Source of the DNA: a virus
DNA length: 64,000 nucleotides
Direction: 5' to 3' (one strand)
IMG/VR virus record: IMGVR_UViG_3300045988_142974
Coordinates: 32,001-96,000 of that record
Positions 15,678-62,314 of the stretch are shown here, one piece after another (the stretch's first letter is position 1; every line of letters begins with the position of its first letter). The position numbers and the translations under genes are program-made. The notes under the pieces are model-generated. The model searched no databases. It was not told where the DNA came from and saw only the letters and a list, made by a program, of their open reading frames with translations.

Positions 15678-16709
15678 ATGGATAACTCAAGAATAAAATT
15701 ATTATTAAAAATTATTAAAAGTTTAGCGATAATAATTATTCCAGCTATATTAACAGGAATTATTACAAATTACTTTACAGAAGGAGAGATTATGGATTCA
15801 ATAACAACTCGCTTTGATTTTGTCGACAAAGAAATGTCATACAAACAAGCACTTGAAGCTATTTATCAAGAAAGAAAAGAAGACAAAGACGAAATAGAGT
15901 CTTTAAATGAAGAAATAAGCAAATATGAAGCTTTAATCAATCAACAAAATTCAACAGATGAGATAAATAAGATTATCCAAAATGCTACCCAATATTGGAA
16001 TGAAGCTAACTATCAGCAATGTTTAACACTTTTAAAAAATTCAAAATCACGTTCGACAGATATTGATAATTTATATACGAAATATTCAGCTCAGTATGTT
16101 TTAATTTTATTGTCAAATGCAGATTCGTTTATTTCTCAAAGAAAATATAATGAAGCTATTGAATTATTAAACGATGGCATAACTCTTGTTGATAATGATA
16201 AAATGTTAAGCGATAAAATAGATGAAATAAACAATAATCAGCCGATTAAATTATCAGATCTTAAAATATCCGCTTCAAGATTTTTTACTCAAAATCAGGA
16301 TAAACCATTGGAAGATACGGTTGGAAATAAGTATTCTACTACAAATTCATTTATTACATATGCAGAAGGAAAATCAAGTTATGGATATGCTACTTTTTAT
16401 TTGGGTAAAAAATATACTGCTTTAAATGGTATTATTGCTATTTCTGATGAAAGTGAAAATAGAAGTGATACTCAATTAAAGGGGTGGATTGAAATAGGAA
16501 CTAAAAGTAATGATACTGAATTTAATTCTTTATGGTCTTCATCAACACTTAGTCGAACAACAAGTCAAATAGAGATTCCTGAAATTAATATTAAGGATTC
16601 AGAGTGGCTTGAAATAAGATATTATAATAATGGAGAATATTTTAGTTTGGGAGGAGGTTATCACAGTCTTCGTGTAATTATATCAGACGTAACATTGTAT
16701 GTCGATTAA
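15678..16709 (+). CDS. membrane-anchored protein (N-terminal TM helix, helical middle, beta-rich C-terminal domain); opposite-strand moron
   Basis: ATG 7 nt after AGGAGGGAG. LLLKIIKSLAIIIIPAILTGIITNYF forms a TM helix. It is the only plus-strand gene inside the leftward arm. The C-terminal ~160 aa is beta-rich (possibly NPCBM-like; weak). Confidence 0.7.
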   Translation: MDNSRIKLLLKIIKSLAIIIIPAILTGIITNYFTEGEIMDSITTRFDFVDKEMSYKQALEAIYQERKEDKDEIESLNEEISKYEALINQQNSTDEINKIIQNATQYWNEANYQQCLTLLKNSKSRSTDIDNLYTKYSAQYVLILLSNADSFISQRKYNEAIELLNDGITLVDNDKMLSDKIDEINNNQPIKLSDLKISASRFFTQNQDKPLEDTVGNKYSTTNSFITYAEGKSSYGYATFYLGKKYTALNGIIAISDESENRSDTQLKGWIEIGTKSNDTEFNSLWSSSTLSRTTSQIEIPEINIKDSEWLEIRYYNNGEYFSLGGGYHSLRVIISDVTLYVD

Positions 16710-27678: not shown

Positions 27679-28554
27679 TTACAAGGAAAACTCCGATTTT
27701 CTATTTGTGGTTATACGCTTTTTATTATATTTTTTATATCTTTTCAAGTCATTTTGTTTTCTACAATCATCGCAGTATAATCGTTTATTAGCTGTTTTTT
27801 CAATAATTCCACCACATCGTTTACAACGAGAATATTTATTATTGTGTCCACGCTTAACAGAGTAATAGTCTTTTTGGTAGTTTTGAAAATACGCATTTAA
27901 CGATCTATTGATGTACTTAACATAAAAATTATCTTCAGTAATAAAATCATAGTTATTTACAATCTGAGTCTTATCTTCATATTCTCCAATCAGTTTGCAA
28001 TTATCAAAACATTTTCTCAAAAATCCTTCAACAACCTTTTTATATTCATTCCAAGATAATATCATTTTCTCCTTTTGAAAACGTTGTTTGAGTTTTTCGG
28101 CTTCATCAATTACATCGTCAATAATACCAGTGGTTGTATTTGCATCCATCTCAGTTCCAGATAACCAATTGAAGTACATTAGCTTTGGTTTCTTTAATAA
28201 ATCCATGTACTCCTTATTGAGAATTACTTCTTTATCAAAATATCTTGTATAAATATTATTGATTTTCTGTCTGATAATAGCGCACCAATTTTCATCTTTA
28301 GTCATTGACTTGTAATATCTGTATTCAATTCCTGACCATGTATCAAATATTCGTCCAAGTTCTGTATCAAGTAAATCCTTTCTGACTTTAAAATGAATTG
28401 TTTTAATATATGTACGCCTTTTATTATCAGAAGCCCATATTGAGGAGCAGAACGAGTTGAATATCTCGTCCTTTACCTTATTATTCTCTGCTTCTTTGTA
28501 ATCTTCTATAATTTCATATAGAAATGTTTCATTACAGTCGTAAATATGTATCAC
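27679..28554 (-). CDS. hypothetical protein with C-terminal zinc ribbon, coupled to the RNA polymerase gene
   Basis: 291 aa. The GTG start overlaps the 3' end of 28532..31165 by 23 nt. CKRCGG...CDDC followed by a basic tail. Confidence 0.6.
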   Translation of the reverse strand: MIHIYDCNETFLYEIIEDYKEAENNKVKDEIFNSFCSSIWASDNKRRTYIKTIHFKVRKDLLDTELGRIFDTWSGIEYRYYKSMTKDENWCAIIRQKINNIYTRYFDKEVILNKEYMDLLKKPKLMYFNWLSGTEMDANTTTGIIDDVIDEAEKLKQRFQKEKMILSWNEYKKVVEGFLRKCFDNCKLIGEYEDKTQIVNNYDFITEDNFYVKYINRSLNAYFQNYQKDYYSVKRGHNNKYSRCKRCGGIIEKTANKRLYCDDCRKQNDLKRYKKYNKKRITTNRKSEFSL

Positions 28555-31165
28555 CTACCTCAAATTCATAGTATTTTCCAAGATATTCATATGAATTGTC
28601 CGTCTTATAAGGAACTTCTCTTATTGATATATTTCTTTTTGGATTCGTGTTATTCTTGAGATTTTCAATGATATAATCGCCATAAGCTGACCATGCAAGA
28701 GATTTGCTAATAGAAACAGAAGAGTAAGAAGCTTTAATAACATAGTTTGCTATAATATTTTCAGGCAATTCAATCTCATTTATGAGTTTCGTTTTATACT
28801 CATTTACGACTTCATCCATATTGAATTTATGGTCTTCATCATCCGACTTATCTCTATGTAGATTCAGATGCTGCTTAATATCAACCGCATACATATTTAT
28901 AAACTTCCTGCATTTCTTTAAGACTTTTCTATCAAACAAATCCAAATCATTATCAATAATTAAACATCTAGTATCAACCAAATCAATTTTATTATCCCAT
29001 AAGATATTTTTCTTTTCCCAAGTTTCAATATAATCACACAACTCATTCATAGGAGAAGGAGAGTGATATGCATTAAGATATTCTTTGTCCTCGTCAGAAG
29101 TATCTCTATTCTTTTTGATTATATTCATATAGGATTTCATTTTTTTAGGATAGTTATGAAGTAAGAAATATGGAAGCTGTTTAAGATGCTTTCTAAGACC
29201 TGAATTCATATGCCATCTGAATCCCGTTTTAAGGAAGTCAATTTCTTTGCCCTGAAAAATTCTTAGAAGAGAAGAGTAATCAGAATATAATTTTTGAATA
29301 TCTGGATTGGTCGTATATTTATTCTCTATACTTGTGGCAACATTAGTAATTTCACCAATACGATTATCTCTTGTCATTACTTCATACTCAATAAGATTCT
29401 CTTTTGTATATGGTTTTGATTGAGCGGTTACTTTGTCTTCAATATCAAGTATGATATGCTTATCTACCTTTGAATCAATAATGATAGGATCGTTGCTTAA
29501 ATAGAAAATATCACCATCAAAATCTGCGCCGCCTTGCTGTGGAGCTGATACATCATACATATTAAACATTACTACATCTTGGTCTTTAAAATAATCAAAC
29601 CATTTTGTAAGAATGTCATTTCGTACAATCTTAATCTTATTTACCTCTGATGGATCAACAAGCGGAGAACGGAATGAACAACAATATCCTGGTTCAAAAT
29701 TTGCTGTATATAATTCTCTTTCTCCAAGACAACCAACTGGTTCTTCACCAACGGCATACTGAAGATAACCAATCATATCACCAACACCTGTATGATAAAA
29801 CCCTGAACAATAAATTTTACCAACTTTTGCTTCATCAATAGACTTTTTGAGTTTTCTATAAATGAATTGCTTAACAGCAGGATCTTTTAACATAACATCA
29901 TTTACCAATGCAGCTTCAAGATATTTACTTTCTGGCTCATAATCTTCTGTATCAGTAATTCCCATGAATTTATATGTATAAAATTTATCACCTTTAATGA
30001 TTTTTTCATACATATTAGTGGTATATTTTGCAAGCTTAATGATTTTTCCATCATTCTTAGAATCTAATATGTCATAGTCCTTTTTTGTTTTATCTGTATA
30101 ACATTTGACATATTTATCATTCCAAAGATCCAGACATTGTAAATACTGAAAATTCATTCGTGTATATTTATTTAAATGCTTAATATGATGACTATATTTA
30201 CTGATACCAAGTTTGAATTCATACTTCCTAACAGTATTCATATATTCAATCCATGCGTTTTCACCATAAGTTGATTTAAAAATCTTATGCCCTTTAAACA
30301 TCGAAATATTCCAAATGCAATCTACATCATCAATATTATGAACATGCCCATAAATGTCAGTAATAGTGGTGTAACCCCATTCTTTAAGAATTTGTTTAAA
30401 TGGTACATATACAGAATATCCTTTAATAAATGGTAAACGTACCTGTGTTCCAATAACTTTGTAGTCTAATCCAAGTTGCTCACTCACAGTATTCATAAAG
30501 TTTTCTTCATGACAGCCACATCCGTCAAAAGGTGATAATCCAATATCTTTTAATCCTTCTTCAATTTCTCTGGTTTTATATTTCTTTTTCTTACCAGTAT
30601 TTTCATCAACAAATTCTTTTTCTCTTTCAACTACGTATTTAATAAGCTGATTTTTCAACGTTTTTTCATATTCACCTATAATTACAATATTAGGCATATA
30701 ATCTTTGATAAGAGTACATGAACTGAATGGTAAACATCTCTGAGCTTCGTACTTGGAAATAACACATTCATCAATTTTAATATCCATTTGAGTAATCAAA
30801 TATAACTCATCAAAAATTTCATCACATACAAATGCAGTAATTCCATCTTTACCTTGTGAAGCTGATTTGCCAAAACGAGAATAGTGAATTCCATTATATG
30901 TAAATCCATCATTTAGAATCTTTCTAAGTGATTCCTCTTGCTTTGGATTCTTCTTTGCAACAACCAACATAAGTTCACTTATATGAGATGATGATTCACC
31001 ACGAAGTCTCTGAATCTGATCAAATAAAGGAGAATCACCTTGCTTGATAAGATATTCTTTTTTGATTTCTGTATCTCTATTAATCTGAATATTAAAATCT
31101 CCATCAATAAGTTCTCTTATTGGGATTTTTACTAATGTATACTGTACCTTTTTTATAATTATCAC
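28532..31165 (-). CDS. YonO/RdRP-like single-subunit double-psi beta-barrel RNA polymerase
   Basis: VSAPQQGGADFDGDIFYLSNDP carries the universal DxDGD metal-binding motif. It is preceded by CCSFRSPLVDPSEV, the counterpart of the RNPxxHPGD strand of eukaryotic-type RdRPs. 877 aa, similar in size to SPbeta YonO. Confidence 0.75.
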   Translation of the reverse strand: MIIIKKVQYTLVKIPIRELIDGDFNIQINRDTEIKKEYLIKQGDSPLFDQIQRLRGESSSHISELMLVVAKKNPKQEESLRKILNDGFTYNGIHYSRFGKSASQGKDGITAFVCDEIFDELYLITQMDIKIDECVISKYEAQRCLPFSSCTLIKDYMPNIVIIGEYEKTLKNQLIKYVVEREKEFVDENTGKKKKYKTREIEEGLKDIGLSPFDGCGCHEENFMNTVSEQLGLDYKVIGTQVRLPFIKGYSVYVPFKQILKEWGYTTITDIYGHVHNIDDVDCIWNISMFKGHKIFKSTYGENAWIEYMNTVRKYEFKLGISKYSHHIKHLNKYTRMNFQYLQCLDLWNDKYVKCYTDKTKKDYDILDSKNDGKIIKLAKYTTNMYEKIIKGDKFYTYKFMGITDTEDYEPESKYLEAALVNDVMLKDPAVKQFIYRKLKKSIDEAKVGKIYCSGFYHTGVGDMIGYLQYAVGEEPVGCLGERELYTANFEPGYCCSFRSPLVDPSEVNKIKIVRNDILTKWFDYFKDQDVVMFNMYDVSAPQQGGADFDGDIFYLSNDPIIIDSKVDKHIILDIEDKVTAQSKPYTKENLIEYEVMTRDNRIGEITNVATSIENKYTTNPDIQKLYSDYSSLLRIFQGKEIDFLKTGFRWHMNSGLRKHLKQLPYFLLHNYPKKMKSYMNIIKKNRDTSDEDKEYLNAYHSPSPMNELCDYIETWEKKNILWDNKIDLVDTRCLIIDNDLDLFDRKVLKKCRKFINMYAVDIKQHLNLHRDKSDDEDHKFNMDEVVNEYKTKLINEIELPENIIANYVIKASYSSVSISKSLAWSAYGDYIIENLKNNTNPKRNISIREVPYKTDNSYEYLGKYYEFEVGDTYLRL

Positions 31166-38304: not shown

Positions 38305-39423
38305 TTATATTATAGAAGCGTTGTATTTTTCTACAATCGTTCTAAGTTTTGTAACAAAATGAGAGATGTCAACAAAATAATTTGGATATGCTAATCTTAA
38401 TGTTTCAAATGATGAGGCAGATACAAGTACAACATTTTTGTCAGAATTTTGTTCAATCTGATCGTAAGCTTTTGTAGCATATTCAAGATTTTTAAATGGT
38501 CTAACTTGTACGGTCTTTTTGTTATAATCAAGCAACAATATATAATATAAATTCTTATTTTTCTGATTGAATTTTTTACTTGCATAATCAATAGATACAT
38601 TTAATCCGCTTAATGTAGATATTATGTTATTTTTATTATCAAGATAATTAATTTCTTTGATTAATTCATCCATCCAATCAGAAGTATTAGGGCATACTGG
38701 CATTTTTTCTTCAATAGCAAATATAGATGATACCAATTCAAAAAATCTAAGGATATCATAATCACCTTGACTAGATTTAAGATTACTGTTTGTATATATA
38801 CCCATCATTTCTACAGCAGTTGCCCACATATGTTGCAATTTTGTGCGGAATTGGACTTCTATAAACATATTTTTATTATAAGTATCTTTTTTGTCACTAT
38901 AGAATTGATATACCATATGATAAGATCTATATCCTGATTGTTTTGGGTTAGCAATATAATCATATTCACGTTTAAGTATATGCCTTATTCGAGAGTTTTT
39001 ATACTTGTCAACCGCTTCATATACTTGCTCTATAGTATCTACGATTACACGACAACCACCTAAATCTTGCATTTTATATAATTGCATTTCGGGAAATCTT
39101 TGAATCTTGCCGGTTATAGATTCTAAACGTTTTAATCTTTGAACAACTATAGCATTAGGATTCTTCTTTCTAAGGTTGCTACATATAATTTGTAAAGGAT
39201 ATGCGTGTGCAGCTCTCCAATTGTTTAATATGACTAGTGCTTTTTTACGTTCTTCAGACGTTGAAAATGGATCAGCTATTATTTTTCCTGCTTTATTAAT
39301 CTGATTGCCTGAATATTTAGGTACTTCCCATTTTTCTTTATTGTTACTTAACATAAATTCCTCCTCAATACTTTTGATAATGGTATCTAAGTCAAGTATA
39401 TCACTTTTTACAATAGTTTTCAT
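38305..39423 (-). CDS. RelA/SpoT-domain protein, toxSAS class with C-terminal extension (CapRel-like fused toxin-antitoxin candidate)
   Basis: Motifs in order: NNWRAAHAYPLQ, RLKRLESITGKIQR, MQDLGGCRVIV, PKQSGYRSYHMVY, IEVQFRTKLQHMWATAVE. These are followed by a non-catalytic tail of about 150 aa. Confidence 0.8.
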   Translation of the reverse strand: MKTIVKSDILDLDTIIKSIEEEFMLSNNKEKWEVPKYSGNQINKAGKIIADPFSTSEERKKALVILNNWRAAHAYPLQIICSNLRKKNPNAIVVQRLKRLESITGKIQRFPEMQLYKMQDLGGCRVIVDTIEQVYEAVDKYKNSRIRHILKREYDYIANPKQSGYRSYHMVYQFYSDKKDTYNKNMFIEVQFRTKLQHMWATAVEMMGIYTNSNLKSSQGDYDILRFFELVSSIFAIEEKMPVCPNTSDWMDELIKEINYLDNKNNIISTLSGLNVSIDYASKKFNQKNKNLYYILLLDYNKKTVQVRPFKNLEYATKAYDQIEQNSDKNVVLVSASSFETLRLAYPNYFVDISHFVTKLRTIVEKYNASII

Positions 39424-39689
39424 GATAAAATCATTCCTTTCTTTATTTTAATTATTATGACATTTATAATTATTTATTCTCGTTATTGTTTATGAGTTTT
39501 ATTTAATATTGTGCATTGCTGTCTTTTTGTATAAAGGTTAAGTAATTAATATTATTTTTCACCTGTTTTTATGGTAATTATGGGGAGTTTATTGAAATTT
39601 ATGTGTAGTTTTATCGTAGCCCTCTGTATTGTCTTAAATGTAAAATTTTTAATTGGAAAAGTGATATCGGTAAAATTACTTATTTATAT

Positions 39690-39900
39690 AGAAGAAACGA
39701 GATTTTGGTATTGGATTTTGTGATGCAGGATTTTTAATTTTGGGGTTCAAAGATGGTTGAAAGTGGCTTGGTTAGTGGGTTTGAGCGATATGGGGTACGA
39801 TAAAGGGTTTGAGGGTAAAATTTGGGATTTTTGCTTGATTTTTAGTGGAAAATTAGAAATTATTTTGAAGTAAAATTTTGAAGTTGGTATGTAGATGAAT
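39690..39900 (+). repeat. C-depleted G/T-rich tract with reiterated short words
   Basis: By eye, only about 6 C in about 205 nt. GGGTTTGAG occurs twice (39777, 39805). TTTGAGGGTAAAATTT lies at 39808. GTAAAATT and GGATTTT recur. Similar tracts lie at 38100-38270 and 40600-40730. Confidence 0.65.
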
Positions 39901-39970
39901 CAGCTATAGGCTCTGTTGCATTTCCAGTCCTATTAGTTAGTTTTTACTACCCCCAGTTAGCTATATTTCA

Positions 39971-40238
39971 CGGTATTTGTACATTTTACCGTAGGATTTT
40001 AGAAGCTTCCTAGAGCGGTATTTATATAGTTTTGAAAACTATGTAATGTGGTTTTGATATTATTATTACATATAGTTTCAAGCTATGACATATCGTTTAT
40101 CATAGTTTTATTCTATATACAATAATTCAAATAAAAACTTTGAAAAGTTATTGACAAATTCGATTTAATATAGTAAACTACAATTAATCAATAACAAGTT
40201 GATTTAATTGAATCAACAAAGAAGTTCTAAAAAACTTC
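39971..40238. repeat. cluster of AT-rich palindromes/hairpins (origin-like)
   Basis: CGGTA..TACCG (39971-39991). A perfect ATAGTTTT-g-AAAACTAT (40026-40042). CTATGA..TCATAG (40083-40105). CAATTAATCAA..TTGATTTAATTG (40181-40210). GAAGTT..AACTTC (40221-40238). Confidence 0.6.
40151..40179 (+). promoter_or_regulatory. possible sigma-A promoter (weak -10)
   Basis: TTGACA, a 17-nt spacer, then TAAACT. Confidence 0.3.
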
Positions 40239-40247
40239 AATAAGTTG

Positions 40248-40276
40248 TTGACAACTACACAAAAGTGTAGTACAAT
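40248..40276 (+). promoter_or_regulatory. near-consensus sigma-A promoter with palindromic operator in the spacer
   Basis: TTGACA, a 17-nt spacer, then TACAAT. The spacer contains the perfect palindrome CTACAC-aaaa-GTGTAG (40255-40270). Confidence 0.75.
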
Positions 40277-40282
40277 ATAATT

Positions 40283-40510
40283 GTTCCAAAGGGGAACGAA
40301 AACACGGTACATAGTACCAACGATACTTTCCCTAAAGAGCAAAAAAGCGGTGAGGCGCTTCCAACACCAACACCGCAAAGGGGAATACTTAGATTCTCAA
40401 TCAGTCTAAGTATAACAAGCCAGTTCTGACTTGTCAATCCCCAACAAAATACCTTTTCCCATCCGTGGGAACTGGTACAACCGCAAAAGTCCATCCGTGG
40501 ACTTGAGCAA
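40283..40510 (+). ncRNA. ATG-free, multi-hairpin RNA (stand-alone ncRNA or first part of an ~830-nt early leader)
   Basis: No ATG in any frame from about 40283 to 40560. At least seven stems are present, including GTTCC/GGAAC, GGTAC/GTACC, GCGGTG/CACCGC, ACTTAGA/TCTAAGT and ACAAG/CTTGT. Twin hairpins TTCCCA-TCCG-TGGGAA and AGTCCA-TCCG-TGGACT share the core CCATCCGTGG. Confidence 0.55.
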
Positions 40511-41109
40511 AAATTTGTACATTGACAAACAAATATTGAAAGCAAGTATCTGATAGATATTTGAAAGTTTACTCATACTGGTTTAAATCCGTATGTTACA
40601 AGTATGCTGATTTAAGAATGGGAAAAGTTCGGGCTTATAGCTTAGATTTTCGGGTTGAAAGTAGCTTAAATTTTAACTGGTGTGAGTGAATGAGTAGGAA
40701 AAGGGTAGGCGAAAACAAGTAAATATTTTATAAAATCCGTAAATCCGTTTCATTAGCGGATATTTCAGGCGGTAACAATTGAATTAGGCTAACTAATTAG
40801 CCTTAAAGCGGTTAGAGAGTACAGACAACGGGGACACTGTACAAATTATCATAGTCGGTGGGCTTGCATTCTGCGAGTCTGTTTAACAAATAAGTTTAGG
40901 CTATGAGTTTATCTCATTTGATAAACAACAAAACTATTGTAGTGGTTTTTGGTTTGAGAAAAACTTTTTACCACTTATCAACTAAAAAGGTGTAACACGG
41001 CTACAACTGGGCATTACATATAAATAAGTCCTAATGTTGTAAAGGTCTAAAGCCCTTGTAAACAGTGGATAGCACTATAACTATATTTGAAATTTAAGGA
41101 GGTACTACT

Positions 41110-41733
41110 ATGAGTACAACAAAAAATAACAAAAAAGCAACTATTAATACGGCATCTGTAAAGGTGCAGTTTATGACTTCATCAAAGGACTTTACTGAAA
41201 CTATGGCTAAATTCTGGATTGCAATTAATCAGATGGCAGATAAAAAGCTTATTCTTCAAAACAACTTACGGATTAGCAAGGAATGGGCAGAACTCAAAAA
41301 GGATGATGCTGAGGCTCAGGCTATGTATTTAGCAGATGTTGAAAAGTATCAGGCAGAATTTGACGCATTTAAAGAAGAATACAATAAGCGTATTGACTCT
41401 TGCTATGAACTTTTAACAGATGAATTATACTCTGCTTACACTACATCAGAGGAAGAGTTTAAGAAGGCTATAAAAGAGTGGTTCTCTGCTCAGAAAATTG
41501 AAGCTACACCTACACTTATTAGCTTTATGACTGTAGCAGTAGGCTATAAAAACAGTAGCAATAAGCAGTTATTCAAGACTGGGAATGCTTTGTCTTATAA
41601 GGCTAAGACTACATTCAAAAATAGCTTTATGAGAGCACTTGCACAGCTTATGAAGGATAAGAATGCACTCAAAACAGATGCTTACAAATATACATACGTT
41701 GAACCAGAAAAGAAAAACAATAAGACAAACTAA
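41110..41733 (+). CDS. hypothetical protein (first gene of rightward arm)
   Basis: ATG 7 nt after AAGGAGG. 207 aa with Lys-rich termini. No motif recognised. Confidence 0.8.
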   Translation: MSTTKNNKKATINTASVKVQFMTSSKDFTETMAKFWIAINQMADKKLILQNNLRISKEWAELKKDDAEAQAMYLADVEKYQAEFDAFKEEYNKRIDSCYELLTDELYSAYTTSEEEFKKAIKEWFSAQKIEATPTLISFMTVAVGYKNSSNKQLFKTGNALSYKAKTTFKNSFMRALAQLMKDKNALKTDAYKYTYVEPEKKNNKTN

Positions 41734-41978: not shown

Positions 41979-41990
41979 TTGCAGAGTGGA

Positions 41991-42012
41991 GGCAGGCTTT
42001 GAGCCTGCCTTT
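41991..42012 (+). terminator. intrinsic terminator
   Basis: GGCAGGC-tttga-GCCTGCC followed by TTT. Confidence 0.65.
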
Positions 42013-42100
42013 AATGCACTATTTCAGTGTATGAAATAGCGGTCACAAGTCCGCAATTTAATTGTCGGTGGAGATAGTATCAAGAGCCGTGGAGGAAACT

Positions 42101-44978: not shown

Positions 44979-45170
44979 ATGAAAAAGAAAATGGCATATA
45001 CAGCCATCGCAGTCGTAGCAATCGCTACGGCTTTTTTAATAGGTAAAAATATACCTAATAAATACGATTATCTGAACTTGAATCAGGTAACAGAAACGGA
45101 AATCAACAGTGATACTGTAACAATCTACACGTCAACAGGTGATTGCTATGATTTCACAATAACAAAATAA
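44979..45170 (+). CDS. small membrane-anchored protein
   Basis: 63 aa with the N-terminal helix AYTAIAVVAIATAFLIG. GAAAGGAAA lies upstream. Confidence 0.6.
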   Translation: MKKKMAYTAIAVVAIATAFLIGKNIPNKYDYLNLNQVTETEINSDTVTIYTSTGDCYDFTITK

Positions 45171-61762: not shown

Positions 61763-61800
61763 AACCGCTAGTAGTAAAATACTGGCGGTTGTTTTTTGTT
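61763..61800 (+). terminator. intrinsic terminator
   Basis: AACCGC-TAGTA..TACT-GGCGGTT followed by GTTTTTTG. Confidence 0.7.
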
Positions 61801-62041: not shown

Positions 62042-62314
62042 AAAGAGCAGGTTCTCCACCGTCCAAAGCGAAAACCTACTCTTAACACAACTTGAACCTA
62101 AGTCCTAGTCATTACATATTATATCGTATTTTCTGGACTTATTCAAGTCACATTTTCCAAACAAGAATTGCGTACATTGAAAATTAAATAGCAGATTGGC
62201 TATCTGTAAAAGCTGTCGTGATGGAGTTGGAATACTCTCGATAGTCTGCGGGCAAATAGAGAATAAAACTATAGAAGACTATCAACAAATTTATATAAGA
62301 AAGGAAGATACGAC

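Follow-up and report, generated by a model that had tools for sequence, protein, structure and literature searches.

The gap between the two transcriptional arms of a phage of about 150 kb and 32% G+C encodes a new structured RNA that is restricted to one clade, has its own family of partner proteins and is predicted to be processed by a ribozyme. Among the functions that we weighed, a modular nut-like leader acting on early transcription is the favoured reading, although we place its probability somewhat below even; a ribonucleoprotein acting in trans comes next, and the other explanations are less likely. All positions refer to the window, i.e. the whole stretch of 64,000 nucleotides that was analysed.

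The rightward arm begins at 41110 and meets the leftward arm across 1.7 kb without a conserved ORF. The GC skew changes sign near 38-40 kb, at this junction, and the flip coincides with the change of transcription direction. Comparison of the 1.8-kb junction with 50,697 GenBank phages by blastn gave no match, and dozens of relatives were present in IMG/VR and metagenomes. A relative of the first rightward gene (p207) is annotated in Clostridium sp. AM45-5, and for this reason we consider gut Clostridia to be the hosts. Pattern scans of viral, metagenome and genome collections for the twin cores described below found members of the leader family in gut-phage contigs only, and no prophage copy was among the matches listed from the genome collection. 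Most other matches were due to chance or to repeats, such as the REP-like palindromes of Gammaproteobacteria (L286, L387).

Table 1. Features at the arm junction and along both arms (window numbering).
Feature	Coordinates	Strand	Description
tRNAs			leftward arm
YonO-like single-subunit RNA polymerase gene	28532-31165	-	leftward arm
toxSAS-like RelA_SpoT gene	38305-39423		leftward arm
Upstream tandem early promoter	40151-40179	+	TTGACA-17-TAAACT, 10/12; 97 nt upstream of the main promoter
Main early promoter	40248-40276	+	TTGACA (40248-53), 17-nt spacer, TACAAT (40271-76), 11/12
Spacer palindrome	40255-40270		CTACAC-aaaa-GTGTAG, exact 6-4-6; once in 64 kb (expected 0.01)
5' hairpins	40283-40340	+	GUUCC/GGAAC, GGUAC/GUACC; window, L001 and L185 only
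Hairpin P_A	40347-40376	+	GCGGUG...CACCGC; predicted in every MFE fold
Domain B	40380-40442	+	three-way; GGGGA/UCCCC closing hairpins 40385-40413 and 40415-40434
Hairpin H1	40450-40477	+	UACC/GGUA, internal loop UU/CU, UUCCCA/UGGGAA, loop UCCG
Hairpin H2	40483-40508	+	GC/GC, internal loop AA/GA, AAGUCCA/UGGACUU, loop UCCG
Linear box	40515-40535	+	UUGUACAUUGACAAACAAAUA; invariant ACNUUGAYA
Middle leader	40536-40988	+	conserved motifs GGNAAAAGUUCGG and UUAGAUUUUCGGG, co-varying hairpins; z -2.6
Twister-P1-like ribozyme	40989-41076	+	P1 GGUG/CACU; P3 insert 41004-41039; P4 AAGG-UCUAAAGC-CCUU; T2 CUA/UAG
First gene p207	41110-41733	+	all-helical 207-aa protein, no known family
Twister-P5 ribozyme	41980-42054	+	49.3 bits against a gathering score of 37.6; after p207 and a 63-aa ORF
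Strong intrinsic terminators	45011-45032, 61763-61790	+	9-11 bp stems followed by T-runs; same-strand genes beyond

Early promoters and the 5' part of the leader

The main promoter had been singled out in the initial annotation as the best match in the window. It is indeed near-consensus, but shares the first rank with three other 11/12 sites, at 16705 and, on the minus strand, at 40437 and 46120. Relatives have two or three tandem promoters of the same kind. The palindrome that had been noticed in the spacer is perfect and unique in the window; its arms co-vary among related promoters (CTACAC/GTGTAG, TCACAC/GTGTGA, CTACTT/AAGTAG), and it is plausibly an operator. On the plus strand, no ATG and no combination of SD and start codon were found from 40277 to 40592 (about 315 nt), the first ATG being at 40593, which bears out the ATG-free and SD-free stretch reported at first. 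No conserved ORF spans the element on either strand, since all six frames contain stops in every relative. An open frame of 96 aa on the minus strand was rejected as a gene: the 92%-identical L001 has at least two stops in every frame.

The 228 nucleotides from 40283 fold on the plus strand with an MFE of -72.7 kcal/mol (z = -6.32), and none of 200 shuffles was as good. Together with the covariation and the lack of a conserved ORF, this value upholds the proposal of a structured non-coding RNA downstream of a strong early promoter. The 5' end of the transcript is presumed to lie within 40283-40340. Every stem that had been listed was found in the sequence, seven in all, but TTTCCCT (40328-34)/AGGGGAA has no comparative backing and clashes with GGGGA(40380-84)/UCCCC(40438-42), whose equivalent occurs in relatives. 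Hairpin P_A shows compensatory variants (AGGGUG/CACCCU and AGAGUG/CACUCU), and the architecture of domain B recurs with different sequences (GGACUU/AAGUCC and GUGGA/UCCAC). The most distant relatives, L287 and L290, have neither of them, and the 5'-most hairpins are lineage-specific, being replaced elsewhere by a different hairpin or by none; the twin hairpins and the box therefore constitute the core of the element.

The element matches no family of Rfam 15, and the initial annotation had likewise not recognised it as a riboswitch, T-box, tmRNA, 6S or retron RNA. At the gathering thresholds of Rfam 15, cmsearch returned nothing for 39400-41200 or for the leaders of ten related loci; riboswitches, T-box, 6S, tmRNA, retron/RT motifs, GOLLD, ROOL and EAR all failed to reach their gathering score. 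Matches at E<=10 comprised RT-6, mir-280 and twister-P1 (41028-41073), and none gave a family for the element. The RT-6 match was put down to chance (20 bits versus 46.7, E 0.17, on the minus strand over the promoter palindrome).

Two side observations concern this region. The minus-strand promoter at 40437..40409 has an extended TG and is present in the window/L001 lineage only; about 25 nt past it lies the antisense of hairpin P_A (40376..40341) with a U6 run, an arrangement that could yield an antisense RNA of about 60 nt. In addition, C-poor, G/T-rich tracts at 39650-39850 and 40555-40720 flank the promoter and RNA module and share the short motifs GGTTGAAAGTRGCTT and AATKGGAAAAGT. They are only about 64% alike overall, and a direct repeat flanking the module was rejected on this ground; the right-hand tract belongs to the conserved middle module of the leader.

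Twin hairpins, linear box and covariation

Hairpins H1 and H2 end in the same CCAUCCGUGG top. The identical UCCG loops and the identical 10-nt core (CCATCCGTGG, at 40459-40468 and 40491-40500) were confirmed as initially described. CATCCGTG occurs five times in the window against 0.53 expected, and the remaining three copies are not hairpins. The two cores are in direct orientation at a distance of 32-35 bp. Between the H2 core and the start of the box there are 22 nt in 15 of 22 sequences, the full range being 21-24.

The 22 sequences are the distinct versions of the element, and the relatives come from about 30 phage contigs. Common to all versions is the 3' third (H1, H2 and the box) of the 260 nt delimited at first. 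Standard pairs occupy 91% of the cells of the 19 proposed H1/H2 pairs, and changes on both sides were found in 12 of these pairs; none of 500 shuffles reached the observed covariation, and pairing fell to 24-58% in controls with slid partners. In helix 1 (H1) alone, 94% of the cells are paired and two-sided changes affect seven of ten pairs. These data show that the twin hairpins are under RNA-level selection. Covariation, which had been proposed as a test of the stems, thus supports both the twin hairpins and the GCGGUG/CACCGC hairpin. With a covariance model derived from the aligned sequences, 40444-40535 scored 105 bits, and the rest of the window had no match of similar strength. Neither the tetraloop nor its two closing pairs, C-A(UCCG)U-G, ever vary, except that both loops are jointly switched to UCUG in L290 and L291, while the lower stems vary freely. 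An invariant top on free stems is the signature expected of a hairpin that is read by a protein.

Pairs of the G.U type outnumber A.C on the plus strand by 15 to 3, which indicates that the plus strand is the folded one. This bears directly on the view that the minus strand is functional, its hairpins serving leftward transcription as terminators or as a small antisense RNA. Within 40283-40471, the minus strand does contain four terminator-like hairpins followed by T-runs; it also has the 11/12 promoter at 40437..40409, and its fold has a z-score of -4.5. However, the z-score of the plus strand is better, the promoter falls in a lineage-specific segment, and H1 and H2 lack a minus-strand T-run in several relatives, e.g. 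L015. Given also the G.U excess, we hold a minus-strand function to be very improbable.

The same alignment bears on whether the two CATCCGTG cores act as DNA, as operators, iterons or activator sites about three helical turns apart. They might belong to a replication origin where the arms meet, or be situated upstream of an internal promoter with TTGACA as its -35 element. The direct orientation of the cores and their distance of 32-35 bp would suit this role, as would the nearly invariant TTGACA/TTGATA 22 nt downstream, the skew change at the junction and three operator-like copies of TTTCATCCGTGAAA in the repressor switch region of another phage, L125. On the other hand, H1 and H2 have different arms, which also vary from genome to genome and yet stay complementary, a property that duplex binding does not need, and the G.U pairs are strand-specific. 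Furthermore, the core spacing varies by 3 bp, the skew switch coincides with the switch in transcription direction, and elsewhere the leader contains co-varying RNA pairs and a ribozyme. No lineage has a -10 element 16-18 nt after the TTGACA, so that the internal promoter was rejected. A role of the cores at the DNA level is thus unlikely in our judgement.

First gene, exchangeable modules and processing elements

The product of the first gene is modelled by AlphaFold2 as all-helical with a pLDDT of 78.6. Pfam, PHROGs, a PDB profile search and Foldseek against PDB and BFVD returned nothing for p207, which has no sequence or fold similarity to N, Q or NusG/LoaP. A homologue of p207 accompanies the twin hairpins in 30 of 30 complete loci, 500-770 nt downstream, and promoter, hairpins and first gene follow in the same order in all relatives. 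This co-occurrence holds down to 45% protein identity (L287), despite reshuffling of the 450-600 nt of intervening RNA. Relatives with a different structured module ('type 2', CUACAUAACGAUUGUUUGACGG...) carry as first gene a paralogue, p196, and keep the linear box beside that module too. Relatives number 113 for p207 and 373 for p196. L015 and L046 share the upstream and intervening RNA and differ in both the hairpin module and the first gene. BLASTP detected no similarity between p207 and p196; with hhalign, their C-terminal 107 residues, a domain of about 110 aa, could be aligned (95.9%, E 6e-9), while the N-terminal ~75 residues are unrelated. Judged from these comparisons, the identity of the hairpin pair tracks the N-terminal domain of the first gene product.

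This strict pairing is left without account if the leader works in cis with a host factor only, either a NusG paralogue of the LoaP type or a metabolite or temperature attenuator, and p207 is a passenger. What speaks for such a leader is that UCCG belongs to the UNCG loop class and that LoaP of Bacillota depends on a hairpin with a UNCG loop in the leaders of the operons that it targets (PMC12691694); a bacterial locus, L176, moreover has four CAUCCGUG hairpins in the leader of a gene for a DegT-type aminotransferase. The systems are alike in having a small, protein-read leader hairpin of the UNCG class ahead of a long operon in Bacillota. The class is respected by UCCG in both hairpins and left by UCUG in L290 and L291. 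The single LoaP hairpin of dfn, GGCCAAUCGCGUCUUCGGCACGUUGCC, differs in sequence and closing pairs, with a C(UUCG)G top and a bulge instead of CA(UCCG)UG, and there is no NusG/KOW domain among the 73 ORFs of the window. Membership in the LoaP system was rejected for these two reasons. Beside the hairpins, the plus strand has neither a terminator nor an alternative pairing. We give a leader governed by host factors only little credence.

The RNA between the hairpins and the first gene is a mosaic. Three unrelated middle modules, exchangeable between relatives, are combined with a 3' module that is either twister-like or tRNA-like, in at least five combinations. As a side observation, ATCCGT is present in five plus-strand copies within 288 nt (40461-40748), two in the hairpin loops, one at 40587 and two in tandem at 40735 and 40743 beside a CGGAU hairpin; counted over both strands, there are 34 copies in the entire window.

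In the window, the 3' half of the twister-like element (41028-41073) scores 17.4 bits against twister-P1, the score being lowered by the 36-nt P3 insert; P1 and P4 are intact, and both conserved stretches, AAGC and UAAA, are in place. The homologue L290:704-769, whose P3 is shorter, covers positions 1-68 of the model at 45.8 bits (E 7.6e-9; gathering 67.2). The T2 pseudoknot co-varies across lineages between CUA/UAG and UCA/UGA, and P1 changes through G-C to G.U. Cleavage is predicted between U40993 and A40994, 116 nt before the ATG and just ahead of the SD of the first gene. The twister-P5 ribozyme, which also occurs in L017 (4820-4892), lies between the 63-aa ORF and the next gene. Since the two elements bracket the p207 and orf63 cistrons, cleavage would probably set the leader free as an RNA of about 0.7 kb and leave p207+orf63 on a short mRNA. 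The initial annotation had left open a stand-alone RNA or the start of an ~830-nt leader, and each alternative is partly right: the annotated RNA is the 5' part of a leader running from 40283 to ~41100, and this leader is probably freed, by predicted cleavage, as an RNA of its own.

In L002-L013, L015, L046, L288/L289 and L292-L294, the twister-like ribozyme is replaced by D-armless tRNA-like elements located about 30-120 nt upstream of the first gene. They consist of an acceptor stem of 6-8 bp, an anticodon-like hairpin and a GGUUCGAUUCC T-loop; ARAGORN, run on 12 loci, called a tRNA only in L015. This replacement suggests that twister-like and tRNA-like elements are interchangeable RNA-processing signals.

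Processing elements placed exactly at the 3' border of the leader are also what one would expect if the leader, cut by twister, or at the tRNA-like element by RNase P/Z, and carrying p207 on its hairpins, formed a free-standing ribonucleoprotein acting in trans. Possible roles would be host take-over, an anti-defence decoy or help in replication or packaging, like phi29 pRNA, GOLLD and ROOL. The 5'-terminal hairpin, the several independently exchangeable structured modules over about 700 nt, the accessory, first-expressed position of a cassette replaceable as a unit, and the strict pairing of RNA module and protein N-terminus all fit such a particle. A further reading sees in the leader and the p207/p196 family a modular phage ribonucleoprotein of a new kind, whose exchangeable docking module (twin UCCG or 'type 2') would match the exchangeable N-terminal domain, while the shared C-terminal domain and the box would engage a common host target. 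Such a particle might be the equivalent of N/nut in Gram-positives, with specificities that can be swapped, or a machine for host take-over or anti-defence without relation to any described system. The perfect co-occurrence of hairpins and p207 could also reflect a ribonucleoprotein with a quite different job. Yet nothing points to a particular function in trans, and a box at a fixed distance with both modules and a promoter-proximal site fit a co-transcriptional role at least equally well. We regard the trans-acting ribonucleoprotein, and likewise the new kind of modular particle, as a doubtful though serious second choice.

GOLLD and ROOL often adjoin tRNAs, and phi29 pRNA has a strong early promoter at the genome end. 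They resemble the present element as large, multi-domain RNAs encoded by phages. However, covariance models for them or for any other Rfam family do not match it, and here the RNA is an mRNA leader, apparently freed by a ribozyme or a tRNA-like element.

The nut-like reading, known systems and genome neighbourhood

In the favoured, nut-like reading, host RNA polymerase would produce the structured leader from tandem early promoters of the sigma-A type, which would probably be shut off through the spacer palindrome. The core would work like a phage nut site: the phage protein would dock on the two C-A(UCCG)U-G hairpins, and the box, which follows 22 nt downstream, would recruit a constant factor, probably one of the host. 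This complex would act on the transcribing polymerase, leading to early read-through of terminators such as that at 45011-45032, a possible target. The twister-like ribozyme would cut the leader from the p207 mRNA; relatives have a tRNA-like element in its place. As p207 matches nothing in the collections searched, we infer this function from layout. Four features of the layout argue for it: the hairpin pair tracks the N-terminal domain of the first gene product; the box is constant with both modules and at a fixed distance; the element directly follows the early promoters and precedes the first gene, as in lambda pL-nutL-N; and processing elements stand at the border of leader and mRNA, with same-strand terminators further on. 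Several points weigh against it. In size and elaboration the leader by far exceeds every nut, put or EAR element, p207 is unlike N, Q and NusG/LoaP, the box fits boxA only in part, L020 and L021 do without the leader, which makes it accessory, and the first strong terminator is 4.7 kb away.

The E. coli boxA is UGCUCUUUAACAA. The box core partly resembles GUUCUUUGAAAACU, which we take to be the rRNA boxA of low-GC Gram-positive bacteria. The box consensus UGUACCUUGACAAAU matches 11 of the 15 positions of UGUUCUUUGAAAACU; CNUUGAYAA matches CUUUGAAAA partially, the pyrimidine run being interrupted, and ACNUUGAYA overlaps the boxA core in part. GUUCUUUGAAAACU has been described as a conserved mollicute spacer primer (PMC3019172).

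The likeness to lambda nut/N (boxA and boxB) extends beyond the position just past the early promoter and ahead of the first gene. The hairpin is apparently specific to the phage's own protein, the linear element is constant across variants, terminators lie down the arm, and an RNA-processing site separates element and gene; in lambda this is an RNase III site. The differences are considerable: two hairpins with UNCG-type tetraloops instead of one with a GNRA-like pentaloop, the hairpin placed before the box as in rrn leaders, a 207-aa helical protein unrelated to N, an RNA about ten times larger and a Gram-positive host, with anti-termination as a proposal for the present locus. HK022 put, which has two stem-loops, and Bacillus EAR are likewise structured RNAs right after a promoter that act on their own polymerase. 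Compared with them, our element is much larger and without an Rfam match at E<=10, and its strict pairing suggests a protein partner.

Protein-plus-RNA anti-termination in Gram-positive mobile elements has been recognised only recently, with conAn and LoaP. To our knowledge, very little is known about the timing of early transcription in large temperate phages of gut Clostridia. The conAn systems of Gram-positive conjugative elements are bipartite, with a large RNA (about 300-380 nt) and a small protein encoded where a very long operon of a Bacillota mobile element begins (PMC8191782). Poorly conserved sequences and element-specific pairs are further traits in common. In conAn, however, the protein gene precedes the RNA, whereas here the RNA precedes the gene, and neither twin identical hairpins nor a ribozyme are described for conAn2; the comparison is one of layout, in which the locus follows the logic of conAn as well as that of lambdoid nut sites.

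The locus offers a compact and testable system, composed of hairpins with an invariant 8-nt top, a protein family with a swappable N-terminus, a constant box and a cut site that is either a ribozyme or tRNA-like. One family of RNAs and one of RNA-binding proteins would be newly described, and twister ribozymes would be assigned a definite task, that of excising both a regulatory leader and an mRNA of two genes from a phage early transcript. Should anti-termination prove wrong, a 0.7-kb phage RNA that is released by a ribozyme and has a protein of its own would still be unexplained and worth study.

The RNA had also been described as lying next to the toxSAS island of the leftward arm, but a link with toxSAS did not survive comparison. 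L020 and L021, the closest kin by toxSAS, carry the same toxSAS (99-100% identity), yet the whole cassette is absent, their leader is short and their first gene is another one, and at many loci the leader stands beside other neighbours. We conclude that the cassette is accessory and has no relation to toxSAS. The leftward arm also encodes, as an 877-aa protein, the relative of YonO-type single-subunit RNA polymerases (Pfam RdRP) listed in Table 1; its nearest GenBank relatives are in phages of Thomasclavelia and Enterocloster, at 24-29% identity.

Motifs similar to parts of the core were seen at three other places. At 62171-62190 (plus strand), a box-like GTACATTGAAAATTAAATA lies in a 270-nt non-coding gap after a small RHH gene, with two mismatches to the box pattern, for which about one chance match is expected, and without adjoining twin hairpins. 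In L125 (IMGVR_UViG_3300045988_121296, positions 1654-1745), an unrelated 59-kb phage, the three identical TTTCATCCGTGAAA palindromes are situated between divergent HTH genes and look like DNA operators that share the CATCCGTG core by happenstance. Finally, the hairpins of L176 (JAEEGL015805472.1, positions 2680-2800; bacterial, 52% G+C) consist of the pair GGAAAUACAUCCGUGUAUUUCC and CACAAAACCAUCCGUGGUUUGUUGUG, both topped by CAUCCGUG and duplicated in tandem, and follow a terminator in the leader of the DegT-type sugar aminotransferase gene; they may be a cellular counterpart of the phage hairpin.
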